Shown here one piece after another: positions 4,470 to 61,810 of a stretch of 64,000 nucleotides of DNA (position 1 is the stretch's first letter; the number at the start of each line of letters is the position of its first letter). Origin of the DNA: an uncultured Elusimicrobiales bacterium. Its GTDB lineage: Bacteria; Elusimicrobiota; Elusimicrobia; Elusimicrobiales; Elusimicrobiaceae. Both the position numbers and the translations under genes were made by a program. The stretch is from assembly GCA_934667625.1 (NCBI GenBank), contig CAKUMH010000001.1, positions 24,792 to 88,791 of the forward strand, given 5' to 3'. Below the pieces are notes generated by a model, which saw nothing but the letters and a program-made list of their open reading frames with translations, was not told where the DNA came from and made no database searches.

Positions 4470-5003
4470 TTATTGTTGGGGCGCTTCTGCCGCTTTTTCC
4501 GCTGGCGCGGGCACTTCGTCTGCGGCAGGTGTTTCTGCGGGGGCTTGCTCCTCCGCGGCCGGACCAGTGGCGGGCGGCTGTGGGAACAGTTCCTCGGCCA
4601 GTTTTTCGGCGTATTCGCGCGCGGTGTTATAGTCCGCAACGGCCTGGGTGAATTGGGAAGTCGGGCGGTTGGTATCCGTGTTTTTGGCCATTTCCAGCTC
4701 CAGCTGGGCCTTTTTAATGTAAAAATCCTCCAACGCCAGCAATAAGCGGATTTGGTTCACCAGCCGGTCTTTTTCCTCATTCACCACCACCGGGCAGGAC
4801 TGCAAAGCCTGGTTTAAAATATCCAAATTTTTCCCCGCCGTCTCTAGCGTCAGTTCCGCCAGTGCCGGGTTCTGCGTGTTAAGCGGCGGCACGGAAACAG
4901 AGGCCGCCAAAGTGGCCCCGTGCTCGGGCAGATACATATTGCCCACCATCATTCCGCCCACAAAGAGGAGCGCCATCGTAAAAAGATAAAGAATGTAACG
5001 CAT
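4470..5003 (-). CDS. Hypothetical membrane-anchored protein with a Pro/Ala/Glu-rich tail
   Basis: 177 aa; N-terminal TM helix (ILYLFTMALLFVGGMMVG); no recognisable domain. Confidence 0.5.
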   Translation of the reverse strand: MRYILYLFTMALLFVGGMMVGNMYLPEHGATLAASVSVPPLNTQNPALAELTLETAGKNLDILNQALQSCPVVVNEEKDRLVNQIRLLLALEDFYIKKAQLELEMAKNTDTNRPTSQFTQAVADYNTAREYAEKLAEELFPQPPATGPAAEEQAPAETPAADEVPAPAEKAAEAPQQ

Positions 5004-5039
5004 AGATAAAATCCTTTTTTATATTTTATCAAAATGGCG

Positions 5040-5067
5040 TTCAAATGAAACGCGTATTTACTATAAT
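5040..5067 (+). promoter_or_regulatory. Putative sigma70-type promoter (-35 TTCAAA, 16-nt spacer, -10 TATAAT) for the 5099 gene
   Basis: Hexamers read directly from the sequence; an AAGGAG RBS follows 7 nt before the ATG at 5099. Confidence 0.3.
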
Positions 5068-5098
5068 AAACCTAACAGACTTTACAAGGAGTTTTTTT

Positions 5099-5623
5099 AT
5101 GGCAAAAATAAAATTCGGAAAACAAGGTCATTTAGAATTGGAAATTACCCCGCTGACCATTTGGTCCAATCCGGGCAGTGAAGGCGAGTTTATGGAGTAT
5201 CAGCTGGGGCTCTATTGCGAGGGCGTCAGCGTATTTAACGAACACTGGACGGACAAACTCGTGGCCTTAAAGGACGAAGAAACCATTTACATCTCGGACT
5301 TCATCGCCGAAACGCTCACCGAACATAAGGAAAATAATTGGACCATGTTAGAGCCGAAAGTATCGCTCTATATGCGCCCGTCCGAGGCCGCCCCGGGGTG
5401 CTGCCGCTCCTACAACCAGCCGGACAATTTTTTATTACAGCTCACCCTGGAGCAAAACATTTTTGCCGGAGAAAACAAAACCTTCGGCCCGTATTCCAAT
5501 ACCGGGCTTACCCTTCAGTTTGAGGCGCCAGGCAAGGCGTGGGCCCAATTCGCGCAGGACATCCGCACCGAAGAAGAAGATTTTGACGAAGAAGACCCCA
5601 CCGCGGACGAATACCGGGATTAA
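5099..5623 (+). CDS. Hypothetical protein with a strongly acidic C-terminal tail
   Basis: 174 aa from the ATG with the AAGGAG RBS (ORF 5045..5623); tail EEEDFDEEDPTADEYRD; no confident family. Confidence 0.5.
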   Translation: MAKIKFGKQGHLELEITPLTIWSNPGSEGEFMEYQLGLYCEGVSVFNEHWTDKLVALKDEETIYISDFIAETLTEHKENNWTMLEPKVSLYMRPSEAAPGCCRSYNQPDNFLLQLTLEQNIFAGENKTFGPYSNTGLTLQFEAPGKAWAQFAQDIRTEEEDFDEEDPTADEYRD

Positions 5624-5629
5624 AGCTTT

Positions 5630-6307
5630 TTGATCGGCGAAAATATGTTCTTTAAGTACGGAAAGGCCGAAACGGACTACCTCAAACAGCGTTGCCCCCG
5701 CTTGGCCCACGTGATTGAACATGTCGGCCCCATCAAGCGCCGGGCGGACCGGGATTTGTTTTCTGCCGTTGTACACCATATTGTGGGTCAACAGATTTCC
5801 ACCAAGGCCCAGGCCACTATTTGGGACCGCTTTGAAAAGGGCCTCCTACACGTCACTCCCCAAACCGTGGTGCAGGCCGGGCTGGCGCGTGTGCAGGGGT
5901 TTGGCATTTCGTTTAAAAAGGCGGAAAACATCTTGGATTTTGCCCAAAAAATTCAAAACAACGCCTTTGACCTGAACGCCCTGTGGCACCTGCCGGATGC
6001 GGAAGTGGCACAGCGGCTTTCTTCCTTAAAAGGCGTAGGCGTGTGGACGGCCGAAATGCTCCTGCTTTTTTGCATGGAGCGCCCCGATATCTTTAGCTAT
6101 GACGACTTGGCCCTCCAGCGCGGCCTGCGCATGCTTTACCACCACCGCAAAATTACGCGTCCCCTGTTTGAAAAATACCGCAAACGTTTCAGTCCGTACG
6201 GCTCGGTAGCCAGTTTGTATTTGTGGGCAGTGGCAGGCGGAGCAGTACCCGGGCTAAAGGATTACGCCCCGGCAAAAAAGGCCCCAAAACCCGCCAAAAG
6301 GAAATAA
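5630..6307 (+). CDS. alkA: DNA-3-methyladenine glycosylase II-like (HhH-GPD superfamily)
   Basis: HhH-GPD region (VGVWTAEMLLLF...DDLALQRGL); sits next to ogt, consistent with an alkylation-repair cluster. Confidence 0.75.
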   Translation: MIGENMFFKYGKAETDYLKQRCPRLAHVIEHVGPIKRRADRDLFSAVVHHIVGQQISTKAQATIWDRFEKGLLHVTPQTVVQAGLARVQGFGISFKKAENILDFAQKIQNNAFDLNALWHLPDAEVAQRLSSLKGVGVWTAEMLLLFCMERPDIFSYDDLALQRGLRMLYHHRKITRPLFEKYRKRFSPYGSVASLYLWAVAGGAVPGLKDYAPAKKAPKPAKRK

Positions 6308-11895: not shown

Positions 11896-12300
11896 ACCCT
11901 GAACTTGATTCAGGGTCTAGCGATTGGGTCGTTTGCTGTTGGCGTTATTAACGGCAAACGACGAACGGCCGAACGACACAAACGGTAGATTCTGAAACGA
12001 GTTCAGAATGACGGTGCTTTGGTTAATAACGGCAGCGGCGAGATCCTGGACTACAACACTCCAGGATGACGACCCCTTGGGCGGACCCCAGAATGACGGC
12101 GCTTTGGTTAATAACGGCAACGGCGAGATCCTGGACTACAACTCTCCAGGGTGACGACCCCTTGGGCGGACCCCAGAATGACGGTGCTTTGGTTAATAAC
12201 GGTAACAACGAGACCCTGGACTACAGCACTCCAGGGTGACGACCCCTTGGGCGGGCCCCAGGATGACGGCGCTTTGGTTCATAACGACAGCGGGTAGGAA
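11896..12300. repeat. REP-like hairpin-module cluster, including an 85-bp tandem array of at least three full copies plus a partial fourth (12004-12300)
   Basis: Unit starts at 12004, 12089, 12174 and 12259 (period 85). Each unit has a cagaatgacgg...ctttggttaataacgg spacer plus a gatcctggactacaacNctccagg(g/a)tgac hairpin; a degenerate copy and a ccctgaacttgattcaggg hairpin lie upstream. Confidence 0.8.
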
Positions 12301-12378: not shown

Positions 12379-12966
12379 CTAGTCTTGCTTGGTTACCGAG
12401 TTGGCGGTGCGATCAGCTTCGGTTTCCGCATAGGTTTCTTTGCCAGCGAAGTCAGCGCAGAACGCTTCGTCATCATTGCTCGTGCCTTTCACGCAAACGG
12501 CGGGCTGAGTGGATTCATAGCGTTTCTGGATGGTGTACGTATACTGGTTCGTACCCACGCGGGTCGCGATGACGCCATTGGTGTTACCCGTAGCAGCGTT
12601 CGTACCGATCAAGGCGATAATAAAGCCGTTCTGGCCGGCGCCGCAAGCGTCGGTAGAGCTGGCGACAGCCTCGGTAGATTCCGCTACGGCAGTAGGCTGG
12701 GTGCCTTTGGTGCAGTACACGCTGGAACCCGCAGTAGCGTTAGCCGGGGCAACGTCCAAGGCGCTCCAGGTCTTAGCATAGTGACCCGTTTTCATTTTGT
12801 AGCGCTGTTGGGCATTGACAACAGTACCAATTAACGTATCAGCTTCGGAAGCGCGGGCGCGTTCCACCGCTTTGAAGTAAGCGGGCATGGCCATGGCGGC
12901 CAAGATACCGATGATCAACACGACCACCAGTAATTCAATCAGGGTGAAACCCTTCTTATTATTCAT
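12379..12966 (-). CDS. Type IV pilin-like (prepilin) protein
   Basis: MNNKKGFTLIELLVVVLIIGILAA: a class III signal with G|F cleavage and N-methylation motif, a hydrophobic alpha1 helix, a variable Cys-containing C-terminus, and a GGAGG RBS. Confidence 0.8.
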   Translation of the reverse strand: MNNKKGFTLIELLVVVLIIGILAAMAMPAYFKAVERARASEADTLIGTVVNAQQRYKMKTGHYAKTWSALDVAPANATAGSSVYCTKGTQPTAVAESTEAVASSTDACGAGQNGFIIALIGTNAATGNTNGVIATRVGTNQYTYTIQKRYESTQPAVCVKGTSNDDEAFCADFAGKETYAETEADRTANSVTKQD

Positions 12967-32381: not shown

Positions 32382-32906
32382 TTATTTAAAGCAATAGGTT
32401 TCGTAGGAGCTGTTGGCGCGACAGGGGGCGGTGGTGTTTGTTTCCAGGCGGCACACCCGTTGGGGTACGCTTCCCCGCGAATGATAGGCAAAGCACAGCC
32501 GTGCATTGGAGGCGAATTTAATCTCTAATTCAGGCACATCGGTGGAGGAATAATCCATACATTGCACCGTTCCTATCACATAGTCACGCAACATGCAAAC
32601 GCCATTTTTGCCAAAAGTAATTTGATTAAAGGTACCATAACCTTCGGCATTGACGGGAGTGGCCGGGCCAAAATTTAAATCTAACGCGCTGAAATCCGTA
32701 GTGTATTGACCGTTGGCCATAAAGTATACTTGTTCCGCTTTGGCAATAGCAGTGCCCATTTCCACCAACTGCTGGTAGCGCGCACGGGCGACTGCGGTTT
32801 GGTACTGGGGCAGGGCCACTGCGGCAAGAATGCCGATGATAAGGACGACGACAAGAAGTTCAATAAGGGTGAAACCGCCTAAACGGCGCGTAGTAACGTT
32901 TTTCAT
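32382..32906 (-). CDS. Type IV pilin-like (prepilin) protein
   Basis: MKNVTTRRLGG|FTLIELLVVVLIIGILAA; AGGAAGG RBS; the 16-codon upstream extension in the ORF track (TTG start) is the palindromic 5' UTR, not coding. Confidence 0.8.
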   Translation of the reverse strand: MKNVTTRRLGGFTLIELLVVVLIIGILAAVALPQYQTAVARARYQQLVEMGTAIAKAEQVYFMANGQYTTDFSALDLNFGPATPVNAEGYGTFNQITFGKNGVCMLRDYVIGTVQCMDYSSTDVPELEIKFASNARLCFAYHSRGSVPQRVCRLETNTTAPCRANSSYETYCFK

Positions 32907-33005
32907 CACAACCTTCCTTTTTGATAAATTTTTCGCATACTCAAAATTTATCAAAAAAAAAAACGATTACAACCCTTTTATATTTTGCCGGCCCAAAAAC
33001 AGCTG
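32880..33005 (-). promoter_or_regulatory. Conserved pilin 5' module (promoter region, palindromic UTR and leader-peptide codons), copy 1 of 3
   Basis: ~130 bp near-identical to 38690-38815 and 60530-60665; contains the inverted repeat ttgataaatttt...aaaatttatcaa. Confidence 0.5.
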
Positions 33006-38716: not shown

Positions 38717-38815
38717 GACGACCTTCCTTTTTGATAAATTTTGAGCATACTCAAAATTTATCAAAAAAAAAACGATTACAACCCTTTTATATTTCCCCGG
38801 CCCAAAAACGGCTTT
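38690..38815 (-). promoter_or_regulatory. Conserved pilin 5' module, copy 2 of 3, with a near-perfect 34-bp palindrome
   Basis: ttgataaattttgagcatactcaaaatttatcaa (15-bp perfect arms) lies directly upstream of RBS AAAGGAAGG and the ATG. Confidence 0.5.
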
Positions 38816-55376: not shown

Positions 55377-55976
55377 TTAGGCCAGTCCTTCCTGCGAGGT
55401 GATCACTTCCATTTCCGGGCGTTTGCCGGAGGTCCAGGCGGAATTTTCCACCTGCTGCAAAATGGGCTCCAGCTTGCCTTGCGCCTGCAGGATAAAATCT
55501 ACAATTTCGCGGTAGGCGCCGTCCCCACCGACGCGCTTGGTAATGTAGTGCGCGTGCTTTTTGACGCACTCCAACGCATTGGGCACCGTGGCGGCAAAGC
55601 CCACCTCTTTTAACAAGGGGATATCGGTGATATCGTCGCCGATATACGCCACCTGCTCGGCCGTAAGGCCTTCGCGCTCCAGCACGTCGTTAAGCGGCCC
55701 GATTTTGGTCAAAAAACCTTGGTACATGTATTTGAAACCCAGGGTTTTGGCGCGCGTAACCGTGGTGGGATGGCGGCGGCCCGTAATAATGCCGCACAAA
55801 ATGCCCGCGCTGTGGCAGAGCAAAACGGCGATGCCGTCCTGCGTGTGAAAGGATTTAAATTCGTCTATTTTGCCGTCGTCGCGGACAAAAAAATTGACTT
55901 TTCCGTCCGTCAGGATGCCGTCAACATCGGTCAAAATGGCCCGTACTTTGCGGGCGCGTTCTATTGCCTGTTCCAT
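55377..55976 (-). CDS. kdsC: KdsC-like HAD phosphatase (KDO 8-phosphate phosphatase family)
   Basis: ILTDVDGILTDGKV motif I; YIGDDITDIP motif; C-terminal ~40-aa extension. Confidence 0.7.
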   Translation of the reverse strand: MEQAIERARKVRAILTDVDGILTDGKVNFFVRDDGKIDEFKSFHTQDGIAVLLCHSAGILCGIITGRRHPTTVTRAKTLGFKYMYQGFLTKIGPLNDVLEREGLTAEQVAYIGDDITDIPLLKEVGFAATVPNALECVKKHAHYITKRVGGDGAYREIVDFILQAQGKLEPILQQVENSAWTSGKRPEMEVITSQEGLA

Positions 55977-58623: not shown

Positions 58624-59694
58624 ATGGACGCAAACAAACAAAAAGCGCTGGATTTGGCCCTCGGTCAAATTGAAAAAGCGTTTGGCAAAGAAGCCATTTG
58701 CAAGTTAGGCGGAGGCGGCGTAAAAAACGTGGAAGCCATTCCCACGGGGGCGCTGTCCTTGGATTTGGCCTTAGGCGTGGGCGGGCTTCCCCGCGGGCGC
58801 GTGATTGAAATTTACGGCCCGGAAGCCGGCGGCAAGACCACCTTGTCTTTACACGTGGCGGCCCAAACCCAAAAAATGGGCGGCACGGTGGCGTTTATTG
58901 ACGCCGAACACGCGTTGGACCCTGTGTATGCCGCCAATTTGGGCGTAAACGTGGACGAGCTTTTGGTATCGCAGCCCGATTCGGGCGAACAGGCCTTGGA
59001 AATTGCCGAAAAGCTGGTGCGCTCGGGCGCGATTGATTTGATTGTGGTGGACTCCGTGGCGGCGCTGGTGCCGAAAGCGGAAATTGAAGGCGAAATGGGC
59101 GACGCGCACGTGGGCTTGCAGGCCAGACTGATGAGCCAGGCCTTGCGCAAGCTGACCAGTCTTCTCAACAAAACCAAAACGAGCATTATTTTTATTAACC
59201 AGCTTCGCCAAAAAATCGGCGTGATGTTTGGCAACCCGGAAACCACTCCCGGCGGGCTGGCCCTTAAATTTTACGCGTCCGTGCGTATTGATGTGCGCCG
59301 CATAGAAAACCTCAAAAAAGGCGACGAGGTTATCGGCACGCGCGTGCGCGCCAAAGTAACCAAAAACAAGGTGGCGCCGCCGTACCGCCAGGCCGAATTT
59401 ACCATGATTTTGGGTCACGGTATTTCGCGTGAGGCCTGCATTATTGACAAAGCGGTGGAAGCGGGTTTTGTGGAAAAGAGCGGCAGCTGGTACCTGTACG
59501 GGGAAGAAAAGCTGGGCCAAGGGGCAGACAACGCCCGCCAGTACCTCAAAGACAACCCCGAACTGGCCGCTGAAATTGAGGATAAACTTTATGTAAAGTA
59601 TCTCGGCCACCACTACAACGGCAAAAAGGCCGACGCGGCGGAACAGGCAAAAGCCGAACCCGCCAAAGAACCTAAAAAGGTTACAAAGAAATAG
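58624..59694 (+). CDS. recA: Recombinase RecA
   Basis: GPEAGGKTT Walker A; L1/L2 loops; canonical RecA throughout. Confidence 0.95.
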
Positions 59695-59701
59695 ACTCTA
59701 C

Positions 59702-59739
59702 AAAAAATGCCCTAGACTAAAATTCTAGGGCATTTTTTT
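59702..59739. terminator. Bidirectional rho-independent terminator between recA and the pilin gene
   Basis: aaaaaatgccctagactaaaattctagggcattttttt. Confidence 0.6.
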
Positions 59740-59750
59740 AAATTCACCAA

Positions 59751-60215
59751 CTAACAACAGGCACAATAGTCATCATCAGTACTGTTTTTTACATTAAGTA
59801 ATTTGGCATAATCCATTGAATGTTTTACTCCACTGTCTATACAACTTTCATCATAGTTAACTACAAATTCATCCGAATCTAAATAGCATAGACAGACTCC
59901 TTCTTTCTTATACTGAGCAGAGGGAATACTGTTTGACTGGGAACTCGCATAATAATAGAAATCTTTTGTTTCTACAAATCCCTCCTCCTTACTACCAGCA
60001 ATAGAAATGTCCAATTCGTCCATAAAACAAATTTCGTCGCCACCTTTTGCCAAGCGACATACTCTATCTGCTTGAGCAATAGTTTTTAAATTACTCATCG
60101 CTTCTGTAAAACGGGACTTCGTAACCGCCTTGGTATATTGCGGCAACGCCACCGCAGACAATATACCAATAATGAGTACAACAACTAACAATTCTATTAA
60201 TGTAAATCCTTTCAT
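59751..60215 (-). CDS. Type IV pilin-like (prepilin) protein, AT-rich and apparently foreign
   Basis: MKGFTLIELLVVVLIIGILSAVALPQ; AGGAGA RBS; coding sequence visibly lower in GC than its neighbours; C-terminal Cys pairs. Confidence 0.8.
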   Translation of the reverse strand: MKGFTLIELLVVVLIIGILSAVALPQYTKAVTKSRFTEAMSNLKTIAQADRVCRLAKGGDEICFMDELDISIAGSKEEGFVETKDFYYYASSQSNSIPSAQYKKEGVCLCYLDSDEFVVNYDESCIDSGVKHSMDYAKLLNVKNSTDDDYCACC

Positions 60216-60339
60216 TTTTTTCTCCTTATTAATGCCTTTATATTTGAGCAAAACGGCCTTTTATGCGCGTTTTTATACGACAGATACATCCGGGTATGAC
60301 CACCGCGATTTATCAAAATCTTAACAAAAAACGATATTT

Positions 60340-60480
60340 TTTGCCGTCTCCCTGAACTTGGTTCAGGGTCCATCGGAACTTTGACTCTCTTGCGCTGGAT
60401 GCTGAAACAAGTTCAGCATGACGGCGTGTTTTGATAACAGCGAGATCCTGGACTACAACCTTCCAGGATGACGGCTCTTT
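60340..60480. repeat. REP-like hairpin-module cluster between the truncated pilin 5' module and the AT-rich pilin gene
   Basis: ccctgaacttggttcaggg, ggatgctgaaacaagttcagcatgacgg and gagatcctggactacaaccttccaggatgacgg. Confidence 0.6.
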
Positions 60481-60533
60481 TGTGGACCGCCAAACTTGCC
60501 AAGATGACGACTTAAAAAGAGCATGCGTAAAGC

Positions 60534-60565
60534 TGCCTAAACGGCGCGTAGTAACGTTTTTCATA
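60534..60565 (-). pseudogene. Truncated pilin gene: conserved leader codons MKNVTTRRLG only, then REP-like repeats
   Basis: Codons 1-10 are identical to the pilins at 32382 and 38225; the reading frame then runs directly into repeat modules; the conserved upstream module is intact (60563-60665). Confidence 0.5.
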
Positions 60566-60665
60566 ACGACCTTCCTTTTTGATAAATTTTTCGCATACTC
60601 AAAATTTATCAAAAAAAAAACGATTACAACCCTTTTATATTTTGCCGGCCCAAAAAATGGTACAA
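60563..60665 (-). promoter_or_regulatory. Conserved pilin 5' module, copy 3 of 3
   Basis: ccttcctttttgataaatttttcgcatactcaaaatttatcaaaaaaaaaacgattacaacccttttatattttgccggcccaaaaa is near-identical to copies 1 and 2. Confidence 0.5.
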
Positions 60666-60699
60666 AAAGGAAAGGCAACGGCCACAACAAATAAGGAAA

Positions 60700-60870
60700 A
60701 GATCCTGGACTAAAACTCTCCAGAATGACCTTATTTAATAACAACAACGACAAAACGACACAAAGGGTAGATGCTGAAACAAGTTCAGCATGACGGTCTA
60801 TTTTAACCACGGCAAGCCCCTGGGACCCTGCGGGCCGCCAGTTCAGCATGACGACACCTTGTTTAGTTGC
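60700..60870. repeat. REP-like hairpin-module cluster
   Basis: aagatcctggactaaaactctccagaatgac and ggtagatgctgaaacaagttcagcatgacgg, plus a degenerate ggaccctgcgggccgccagttcagcatgacg. Confidence 0.6.
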
Positions 60871-60922
60871 GACAATAACAAGCGGGGCCAAACGGGAACG
60901 CGTAAAAATACTACAATAAGGT

Positions 60923-61810
60923 ATGAACGATTTTTTGCTAGAGGATTTTAAAAATCACCTCACGTTTGAGCGGCAACTATCCAAAAACACCGTGCTTGCG
61001 TACGGAGCGGACACGGAAAGTTTTTTGGAGTATTGCGCCGCCAACGAGCTCCCGCCCGAAAAAGCCACCCCGGAGTTTTTGGACCAATACAACTACCAAC
61101 TCCGCGTCGTGGAAGGGCTCCAACCCGCGAGCGTTTTCCGCAAATTGGAAGCCGTCAAAAGCTTTTACAAGTTTCTGCTGGTGGAGGAGAAAATTCAGGA
61201 TGACCCCACCCGTTTTTTAAAATCGCCCAAACTTTCGCAAAAAATTCCCACCCAACTCACCCGCGAGGAAATGGACCGGCTGCTTTCCTATCCGGCGGAA
61301 AAATTTGACGAAATCCGCACCGTGGCCATTATAGAACTCTTATACGCGGCGGGTCTGCGCGTCAGCGAGCTGATCAACCTGCGGTTGGAAAACGTCAACA
61401 CCGAGGAGGGCTGGGTGTTGGCCTTCGGCAAAGGCGGCAAGCAGCGTTTTGTGCCCATTCATCCGCAAGCTTGCGCGCGCATCAAGGCCTATTTGGACGT
61501 GCGCGAGGCGCATTTTGCCGCCAAAAATGTGGGCTCTGAAGTGTTTTTAAACAAAAACGGCAAAAAAATCAGCCGCGTTTGCGTATGGAAAGACCTGGCC
61601 GCCCTCGGGCGCAAGGCCAACATTTCGCAACCGCTTCATCCGCACCTGTTCCGCCACACCTTTGCCTCGCACTTATTGCAGGGCGGGGCGGACCTGCGCA
61701 GCTTGCAGGAAATGCTGGGACACGCCAATTTGACCACCACCCAAATTTACACGCATTTGGATGTGGGCGACCTAAAAAACAAACACAAAAAATTCCACCC
61801 GCGGGGCTAA
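60923..61810 (+). CDS. Tyrosine site-specific recombinase XerC/XerD family
   Basis: C-terminal catalytic domain HPHLFRHTFASHLLQGGADLRSLQEMLGHANLTTTQIYTHL (R..HxxR..Y); 295 aa. Confidence 0.85.
   Translation: MNDFLLEDFKNHLTFERQLSKNTVLAYGADTESFLEYCAANELPPEKATPEFLDQYNYQLRVVEGLQPASVFRKLEAVKSFYKFLLVEEKIQDDPTRFLKSPKLSQKIPTQLTREEMDRLLSYPAEKFDEIRTVAIIELLYAAGLRVSELINLRLENVNTEEGWVLAFGKGGKQRFVPIHPQACARIKAYLDVREAHFAAKNVGSEVFLNKNGKKISRVCVWKDLAALGRKANISQPLHPHLFRHTFASHLLQGGADLRSLQEMLGHANLTTTQIYTHLDVGDLKNKHKKFHPRG

Follow-up and report, generated by a model that had tools for sequence, protein, structure and literature searches.

A type IV pilin locus lies between recA and a Xer-type tyrosine recombinase gene, xerD, in a 64,000-nucleotide (nt) stretch of contig CAKUMH010000001.1 from an uncultured Elusimicrobiales bacterium (hereafter the window). 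Read from high to low coordinates, xerD is followed by a hairpin cluster, an AT-rich module, an ATG at 60564 that opens the leader MKNVTTRRLG, further hairpins, a remnant 5′ region, a complete pilin gene, another hairpin and recA (Table 1). A preliminary description of this DNA had likened the arrangement to cassette replacement, or pilin variation, at a fixed expression module next to the recombinase gene. We consider it likely, if some way from certain, that the locus is one allele of a strain-variable pilin slot whose bodies are exchanged by homologous recombination at dispersed repeats, XerD being uninvolved.

The host of the slot is a human-gut Elusimicrobiaceae species resembling Candidatus Avelusimicrobium, and exact matches of the window's proteins come from human-gut metagenomes, Hadza samples among them. 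Alleles were compared across contigs that code for an identical XerD, an identical RecA or the pilin P0007, and the sequence that follows the leader was surveyed in the roughly 130 loci fetched (L-numbers below). The exact pattern of the module palindrome had no match in species-representative genomes, which differ slightly from the window, and loci in these genomes were gathered through the XerD protein instead; the exact leader pattern had no match in JGI metagenomes. The full recA–xerD gap of 1,228 bp is identical in three independent assemblies (L001, L003 and L006), which rules out an assembly artefact for the window arrangement, and L002 and L005 agree with the window over all positions they cover.

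The shared module, its orphan leader and the hairpin units

The 30-nt leader sequence ATGAAAAACGTTACTACGCGCCGTTTAGGC occurs exactly three times in the window, always on the minus strand (ATG at 32906, 38716 and 60564), and chance would yield none. When the three loci are aligned, about 130 bp 5′ of each ATG prove nearly identical, including TTTTTGGGCCGG, AAATATAAAAGGGTTGTAATCG, a T10/T11 tract, the palindrome TTGATAAATTTTGAG...AAAATTTATCAA and AAGGAAGG. As described previously, this module stands at the head of two intact paralogs: the copies at 32 and 38 kb run into N_methyl pilins of 174 and 163 aa. The module palindrome is found 5′ of many pilins in many species. The T tract (60611–60620, 32954–32964 and 38763–38772) differs in length between the paralogous copies, and at the same locus it is T10, T11 or T12 depending on the strain (window, L004, L007, L098–L106, L118, L124, L133). 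Such variation in length between otherwise identical promoters is one feature of phase-variable promoters with a homopolymer tract; if the tract lies in the promoter spacer, it would constitute a slipped-strand expression switch for each pilin. The promoter hexamers of the module are guesses; where we assign promoters and terminators, we do so from conservation and by reading the sequence.

The palindrome itself varies in a symmetrical manner. In some alleles TTGATAAATTTT...AAAATTTATCAA is changed to TTGCTAAATTTTGC...GCAAAATTTAGCAA, with both arms altered together (window 60579–60612, L118 about 4950–4990, L133 1250–1290), and in other strains its centre is perfect (GAGTATACTC). This pattern points to symmetric constraint on either an operator or a hairpin of the untranslated region (UTR).

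The preliminary description was right that a genuine module copy occupies 60534–60665, but not that its leader is cut off after codon 10. Homology to the paralogs reaches about codon 14 (GSFTH versus GGFTL), and the open reading frame (ORF) runs on for 83 codons in all and takes in three hairpin units that resemble repetitive extragenic palindromic (REP) elements: a t3-like unit at about 60475–60510, followed by a t2 and a t1 unit. Over its residues 1–58, this orphan ORF shares 97% identity with the long leader of P0007, an intact pilin. Leader and hairpins match the intact ORF of this pilin's slot allele (allele E, below) almost base for base, which refutes the notion of a simple decayed duplicate.

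Downstream of the orphan ORF, the gene previously noted as a complete pilin with its own ribosome-binding site (RBS) and low GC content proves to be just that: it matches PF07963, and its GC content is 36.3%, against 52.6% for the window. Scores for PF07963 and TIGR02532 exceed the cut-offs for this pilin and for those at 32382 and 38225. The exact low-GC protein is present on 11 contigs, and an orthologue adjoins recA in another Avelusimicrobium species (L043, 87% nucleotide identity). Window 60203–60331 aligns at 91% with L043 4121–4248; further 5′, L043 carries ATAAAGGGGTTGTTTCG-T11, which the window lacks. The C terminus of the low-GC pilin family bears a cysteine cluster (CACC, CCCC, CSCC or CDCC; window 59751–59765, P0001–P0019), and such a C terminus is unusual for a type IV pilin.

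The L043 orthologue keeps a GGGTTGT box and a T tract, of which the window gene has lost the former and most of the latter; transcripts of the low-GC pilin therefore probably arise by read-through from the module, 320 bp upstream, and the orphan ORF would act as an upstream ORF. Folding of the region is more stable than that of shuffled sequence (z = −3.7), and the hairpins between the module and the pilin need not stop transcription, because they lack T runs. At the other end of the gene, the hairpin at 59701–59740 is a probable two-way terminator common to recA and the low-GC pilin; a consensus terminator scan did not call this hairpin, and called no terminator.

The hairpin units, delineated by a repeat search and a simple scan of the window, share a common plan: GTCAT, a 6-nt stem, a loop, a second 6-nt stem and ATC. 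The t1 unit has 25 nt and a CTTGT-type loop, the t2 unit has 29 nt and the loop RKGTTKTAG, and the longer t3 unit contains GGCGGCCCGCAGGG. Six clusters lie at about 11.97–12.29, 33.0–33.2, 38.9–39.05, 43.4–43.5, 60.35–60.51 and 60.70–60.86 kb, and every window copy is on the minus strand, in direct orientation. The last of these is the second cluster that the preliminary description had placed between the module and the recombinase gene (found at about 60701–60855), and it is near-identical across all strains of the species. The t3-like unit that follows the leader at 60475–60510 is homologous to a unit 5′ of the 32-kb pilin and to an insert within the leader in L105 and L106, while a hairpin related to the 60350–60368 unit stands in the same place in allele F (L133), 5′ of a second module. 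When the 8-bp stem is aligned in 16 t2-type copies from the window and related species, every cell holds a standard pair and six of the eight pairs vary on both sides, a covariation that no shuffle or slid register comes near. Dispersed short hairpins, a conserved flank and covarying stems are among the features by which REP and REPIN elements are recognised, and the units behave like elements of the REP or bacterial interspersed mosaic element (BIME) type, in which structure, not arm sequence, is conserved. Rfam matches above the gathering threshold in the window are confined to three tRNAs; matches in the locus are at chance level, and no family corresponds to the hairpin units. The window's largest repeat array consists of three tandem 85-bp units, each a hairpin doublet, at 12004–12293, downstream of the pilin at 12379–12966.

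Slot alleles in conspecific strains

The preliminary description had proposed that related strains be compared for alternative bodies joined to the same leader, and this comparison is positive: the flanks are about 98–100% identical and the breakpoints fall at hairpin repeats. Identity of clpB, recA and xerD to the window ranges from 97.7% to 100%, the lowest value being due to the recA tail, and all conspecific contigs share the genes beyond xerD (histidine phosphatase and leucyl-tRNA synthetase). Behind the same module, these strains carry at least six slot arrangements.

Allele A, in which the orphan leader-hairpin ORF precedes the self-starting low-GC pilin, is found in the window, L001, L003 and L006, in L002 and L005 where covered, and, with single-nucleotide polymorphisms (SNPs) in the leader, in L014. 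In allele B (L004, L009, L109–L111, L113) the leader passes through GGFIDE directly to t1, and t3 and t2 are missing. Allele C (L112, L116) places leader, t3, t2, t1 and tail in frame with the low-GC body as a single 216-aa ORF. Allele D (L007) combines a short leader with a third pilin body and a different far neighbour. Allele E (L118–L122 and P0007, a 226-aa protein from a cluster of 43 sequences) has the same leader and hairpins in frame with a different body (TKAVAKSRLAGMITLG...YYKLK). In allele F (L133), a stub and another hairpin precede a second module, which is complete and has a hairpin-bearing leader and a pilin of its own; a search with the 49-aa hairpin-encoded peptide returned a single candidate, P0121, which led to this allele and is uninformative on translation outside pilins.

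The junctions between these alleles are well defined. The window and allele E (L118) scarcely differ between xerD and the end of t1 (about 60398) and are then fully different until 59661 within recA; of the 25 mismatches between the two recA genes, 16 fall in 59661–59694. Allele B strains L110 and L113 have the tail TACCGCA as in L118, and diverge from L118 directly after it. Allele C follows allele E as far as ...CTCATAGAA and from there on the low-GC gene, and because the sequence switches at this point the crossover lies inside the conserved GFTLIELL codons. In L007, the xerD-side module is joined to the third pilin and a Peptidase_S13 gene (positions 1–2200); the unique part is absent from the window and every other locus, and divergence begins within the repeated module.

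Smaller exchanges are also visible. L014 differs from the window by five SNPs in the 30-nt leader, against two in the other roughly 305 aligned bases of the region, a clustering that appears to indicate gene conversion of the leader. In L110, L111 and L113 the central 70 nt or so of the low-GC body is swapped for an unrelated stretch while both ends remain identical, a mosaic that looks typical of a hypervariable pilin region. Upstream of clpB, L112 (1–962) has a 177-aa pilin and about 400 bp of different sequence in place of a hydrolase gene (window 55377–55976), and this is a second variable pilin site near the slot.

Table 1 Features of the recA–xerD slot and of its paralogous module loci in the window
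Feature	Position	Strand	Basis and remarks
recA	58624–59694	+	RecA Pfam domains; conserved slot flank; last ~34 nt (59661–59694) allele-variable
Hairpin GCCCTAGA...TCTAGGGC (59709–59731) within A/T runs	59701–59740		Read from sequence; conserved with the low-GC pilin in L043
Low-GC type IV pilin, 154 aa, MKGFTLIELL	59751–60215	−	PF07963 and TIGR02532 matches; complete; own AAGGAG RBS and start
Low-GC pilin 5′ UTR and truncated promoter region	60216–60335	−	GGGTTGT box and most of T tract gone
Orphan leader-hairpin ORF, 83 codons and stop, MKNVTTRRLGSFTHALFKSSSWQVWRSTKEPSSWKVVVQDLAVIKTRRHAELVSAS...	60313–60564	−	ORF listing and sequence
REP-like hairpin CCCTGAACCAAGTTCAGGG	60350–60368	−	Between orphan ORF hairpins and low-GC pilin promoter remnant
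REP unit t1 GTCATGCTGAACTTGTTTCAGCATC	60398–60422	−	Hairpin scan; left edge of the segment variable between alleles A and E
REP unit t2 GTCATCCTGGAAGGTTGTAGTCCAGGATC	60444–60472	−	Translated as SSWKVVVQDL in long leaders
t3-like degenerate unit GTCGTCATCTTGGCAAGTTTGGCGGTCCACAAAAGAGCC	60475–60510	−	First element after leader codon ~14
Shared expression module	60565–60665	−	GGGTTGTAATCG box; T10 tract 60611–60620; palindrome 60579–60612; RBS AAGGAAGG; three window copies
Upstream REP cluster	60701–60855	−	t2-like 60701–60729, t1 60770–60794, t3-like ~60816–60855
Xer-type tyrosine recombinase gene (xerD-like), 295 aa	60923–61810	+	PF00589, PF02899
Paralogous pilin, 174 aa	32382–33000	−	Same module; N_methyl pilin, intact
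Paralogous pilin, 163 aa	38225–38810	−	Same module; N_methyl pilin, intact

Hairpin units in prepilin leaders

At each of the three module loci, some strains have short leaders and others long ones. The 32-kb pilin has a short leader in some other strains, as in the window, and in L105 and L106 it contains hairpin composites of 162 and 198 bp, in frame between ...RRLGGF and GFTLIELL and homologous to the composite at 60.4–60.5 kb. In several strains the 38-kb pilin carries a 117-bp in-frame insert with one t1 unit. At the 32-kb locus of L101 (about 2300–2400) the module and leader are gone, the upstream cluster being joined to the in-leader cluster within t1; the body starts at GGTTTCACTC with neither promoter nor start codon, and to judge from this sequence L101 holds a naturally silenced pilin.

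Beyond this species, the low-GC pilin orthologue has in-frame hairpins after MKGF (L043, L117), and unrelated pilins of other species also have in-frame leader hairpins (L049, L068). As in repeats of the Rickettsia palindromic element (RPE) kind, the elements lie in frame in L043, L049, L068, L105, L106, L116, L117, L118 and L124. Wherever all three frames were translated only one is open, and at least eight alleles have units that are read in frame; in alleles A, B and F, the broken cases, there is no in-frame fusion. When the allele C protein is searched against a database, its hairpin-encoded leader turns up on at least six different bodies. The long leader reads ...LFKSSSWRVWRSTKEPSSWKVVVQDLAVIKTRRHxELVSGST...GR.GFTLIELL, in which RHPELVSGST is translated t1. 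MKGF-type pilins that contain between one and five in-frame units are also numerous in the database, and one such protein bears the annotation of a type IV pilin from Candidatus Avelusimicrobium alvi. Translated in-frame hairpin repeats in prepilin leaders are thus widespread in Elusimicrobiaceae.

The inserts sit just after the first Gly-Phe codons and are followed by a second, imperfect GGNTTYAC copy that restores G|FTLIE, so that long-leader alleles keep the G|F-T-L-I-E motif after the hairpin-encoded extension. With an intact G|F...E5 site, these leaders of 50–90 aa are predicted to be removed by prepilin peptidase. Two compatible readings account for the position of the inserts: the leader may be a safe harbour, in which in-frame insertions alone survive as it is cleaved off, or the hairpin elements may have a target preference for the leader site. 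Because the same composite occurs at two loci, much of the spread clearly appears to be recombination of whole long-leader modules between loci. Imperfect duplications would be odd for fresh target-site duplications.

Probable recombination at dispersed repeats, and alternative explanations

The breakpoints of the window allele, at the end of t1 and in the last 34 nt of recA, point to homologous recombination at dispersed repeats and not to site-specific exchange. In the model that we favour, the module, the hairpins and the conserved N-terminal pilin codons, all of them dispersed repeats, would provide portable homology, and general homologous recombination within genomes and between strains would swap, delete or convert bodies and 5′ ends. 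The window allele would have its left crossover in t1 and its right crossover in the last 11 or so codons of recA; by an equivalent route, the first body of a tandem pair would be deleted between directly repeated hairpins. The product would be an orphan module and an 83-codon ORF upstream of a low-GC pilin that has its own RBS and start and no longer has the upstream portion of its promoter. Where direct hairpins lie on either side of a body, their recombination would remove the body and leave a stub (alleles A, B and F); where hairpins bracket a module, the module would go (L101); and crossovers in the flanks would replace bodies (alleles C and E). The cassette replacement at a fixed module that was first proposed thus finds support between strains (alleles B, C, E and F).

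Several points weigh against this model. The data are all metagenome assemblies, in which minority variants are collapsed, so that rapid switching within a clone may be compatible with them, and part of the contigs end at hairpin or module repeats. L007 may be a real rearrangement or a chimeric assembly join across the module of about 110 bp. The direction of events, replacement or deletion in situ, is read from end states alone. Some of the hairpin copies counted for covariation came from a scan that requires pairing, and a scan with the sigma-70 consensus called no promoter. Finally, recurrent insertion after Gly-Phe with an imperfect GGNTTYAC duplication hints at a transposition-like step beyond recombination.

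We find it highly improbable that the adjacent XerC/D-family recombinase exchanges cassettes site-specifically in the manner of an integron or shufflon, with the hairpins as its sites and the module as the fixed promoter. As previously noted, a gene of this family is indeed present at 60923; it is on the plus strand and divergent from the module, and the imperfect-palindrome hairpins at allele breakpoints loosely resemble folded attC sites. Yet its protein passes the Xer family model NF001399 (PRK00283; 295.8 bits versus a cut-off of 279) and falls just below the XerD equivalog cut-off (311.8 versus 329.6), whereas the integron integrase models TIGR02249 (121.8 versus 265) and NF011946 (68 versus 435) fail. 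The position of xerD is kept even where the gap holds no pilin. A XerD scan of species representatives returned about 60 Elusimicrobiaceae loci at 62–89% identity, metagenome-assembled genomes of Candidatus Avelusimicrobium included; the order clpB–recA–[0–2 pilins]–xerD recurs in about 50 of these, with gap pilins of very different leaders and bodies, and recA directly adjoins xerD in L045, L069 and L071. From this conserved position and the Xer subfamily score above cut-off we judge xerD to be a bystander, an old housekeeping neighbour of recA between which and recA pilins came and went. The gap takes non-pilin genes too, as in L043, where a gene for a 487-aa multi-pass membrane protein (4539–6002) separates the pilin from xerD. 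Moreover, the hairpins are also found at five other window sites, far from xerD, their stems vary by compensation with no fixed arm sequence, they are all direct, so that inversion is unavailable, and the right breakpoint lies inside recA, where there is no hairpin. Compensatory stem changes mark a folded hairpin, and would not be expected of a sequence-specific Xer core site. A role for the recombinase gene in pilin exchange, which had been suggested from its proximity, is not supported, given the synteny over about 50 species with none to two pilins, the Xer-type scores and the dispersal of the hairpins; a recombinase gene that adjoins a variable locus can be mere synteny.

Frequent, programmed pilin variation, in which RecA-dependent conversion among the module paralogues proceeds as in Neisseria pilE/pilS and the hairpins promote recombination, strikes us as improbable. 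The clustered leader SNPs between strains point to conversion from paralogues, one long leader is found on at least six bodies, short and long leaders segregate at three loci, and L110, L111 and L113 have a mosaic central low-GC body. The window allele is nevertheless base-identical in three independent assemblies, no sample with two alleles was seen among those checked, and allele differences go with divergence of the flanks. Nor do the 64 kb contain promoterless, 5′-truncated silent cassettes: a tblastn search of the window with seven pilin bodies found five full genes and the stub alone, and a pilS-type system, with silent cassettes that lack promoter and N-terminal codons, was rejected for the window. 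The promoterless body of L101 occupies the place of the expressed gene.

Similarly little weight can be given to a plain pseudogene, in which a mobile hairpin element entered the 5′ end of a pilin whose body then decayed or was deleted, leaving a stub without a role next to an unrelated low-GC pilin with its own promoter. The inserts do resemble insertions, flanked as they are by imperfect Gly-Phe-Thr codon duplications; the stub ORF terminates without a pilin body, and the low-GC pilin has its own RBS and an old recA neighbour in another species. The stub, however, is undecayed and near-identical to functional long leaders of sister strains, the low-GC pilin, unlike its orthologue, lacks the upstream half of its promoter region, the layout of a stub before a complete pilin occurs again in allele F, and the bias towards in-frame inserts suggests that they are tolerated or selected, not merely destructive. 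Doubtful, too, although slightly less so, is an extension of the recombination model in which the in-leader hairpins would be domesticated adaptors that, together with the module and its variable T tract, allow gut Elusimicrobiaceae frequent modular swapping, silencing (as promoterless bodies or orphan stubs) and re-expression of pilin bodies.

A literature search of limited coverage returned no account of hairpin repeats in pilin leaders, nor of this slot, and the closest parallels are partial. RPEs are small palindromic repeats that lie in frame in protein-coding genes and are translated (PMC10969869). The hairpin units are likewise in frame and translated, but all in-frame inserts are here in the type IV prepilin leader before G|F, whereas RPEs are scattered over unrelated genes; the present units are also 25–40 nt long, stacked in variable numbers, and fill intergenic clusters as well. 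With REP, BIME and REPIN elements they share short GC-rich hairpins, a 5′ GTCAT motif, clustering, dispersal, strand bias and compensatory stems. Classical REPs are extragenic by definition, in contrast to these often translated units. An imperfect duplication of 8–11 bp at the insertion sites is not expected of insertion of the RAYT/IS200 type, and no RAYT gene was seen in the 64 kb and its flanks, although no search aimed at one was made.

In Pseudomonas aeruginosa, unrelated pilA alleles lie between conserved housekeeping neighbours and are exchanged by recombination in the flanks. The slot described here also holds strain-specific pilins between housekeeping genes; it differs in that one crossover is in the leader and hairpin region, so that promoter and leader stay fixed while the body changes, and stubs and promoterless bodies arise. 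In Neisseria, pilE and pilS undergo RecA-type recombination between paralogues that share conserved segments, and small repeats surround the pilin loci. Pilin diversity through recombination of paralogues with small repeats is common to both, a looser resemblance than that to the pilA slot; here the conserved, portable part is the promoter-leader end, and variation is seen between strains. The R64 shufflon, in which the Rci tyrosine recombinase acts on PilV, and integrons, in which a divergent promoter feeds hairpin-bounded cassettes, recall the tyrosine recombinase gene that adjoins this variable type IV pilin locus, and are the systems nearest to the preliminary description's proposal. The present recombinase is a syntenic Xer orthologue, however, and the repeats are direct, dispersed and conserved in structure, with one breakpoint in recA. 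A shufflon or other invertible segment (Rci, Piv) was rejected, as all hairpins and pilin genes are on the same strand and there are no alternative C-terminal segments; an integron was rejected on the failed IntI-type models, on the single pilin with its own RBS in place of an array of promoterless attC cassettes, and on the dispersed hairpins and the breakpoint in recA.

Elusimicrobiaceae are uncultured gut bacteria whose genomes hold many type IV pilin genes, and many of the samples that contain the species of this slot belong to Hadza and other human-gut cohorts. Their type IV pilins are likely contacts with the host, with phage and with other microbes, and a fixed promoter-leader with hairpin homology is a concrete and testable means by which a lineage without genetics could diversify its surface. 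Should the hairpins act as adaptors, the system would be a new mechanism of surface variation based on translated REP-like repeats. The by-product of most interest is the prepilin leaders made of in-frame hairpin repeats, which segregate with short leaders at every module locus examined. Leaders of 50–90 residues composed of translated palindromic repeats would widen the known substrate range of prepilin peptidase, and the leader, as a peptide that is cleaved off, would neatly illustrate how selfish repeats can find a safe harbour.

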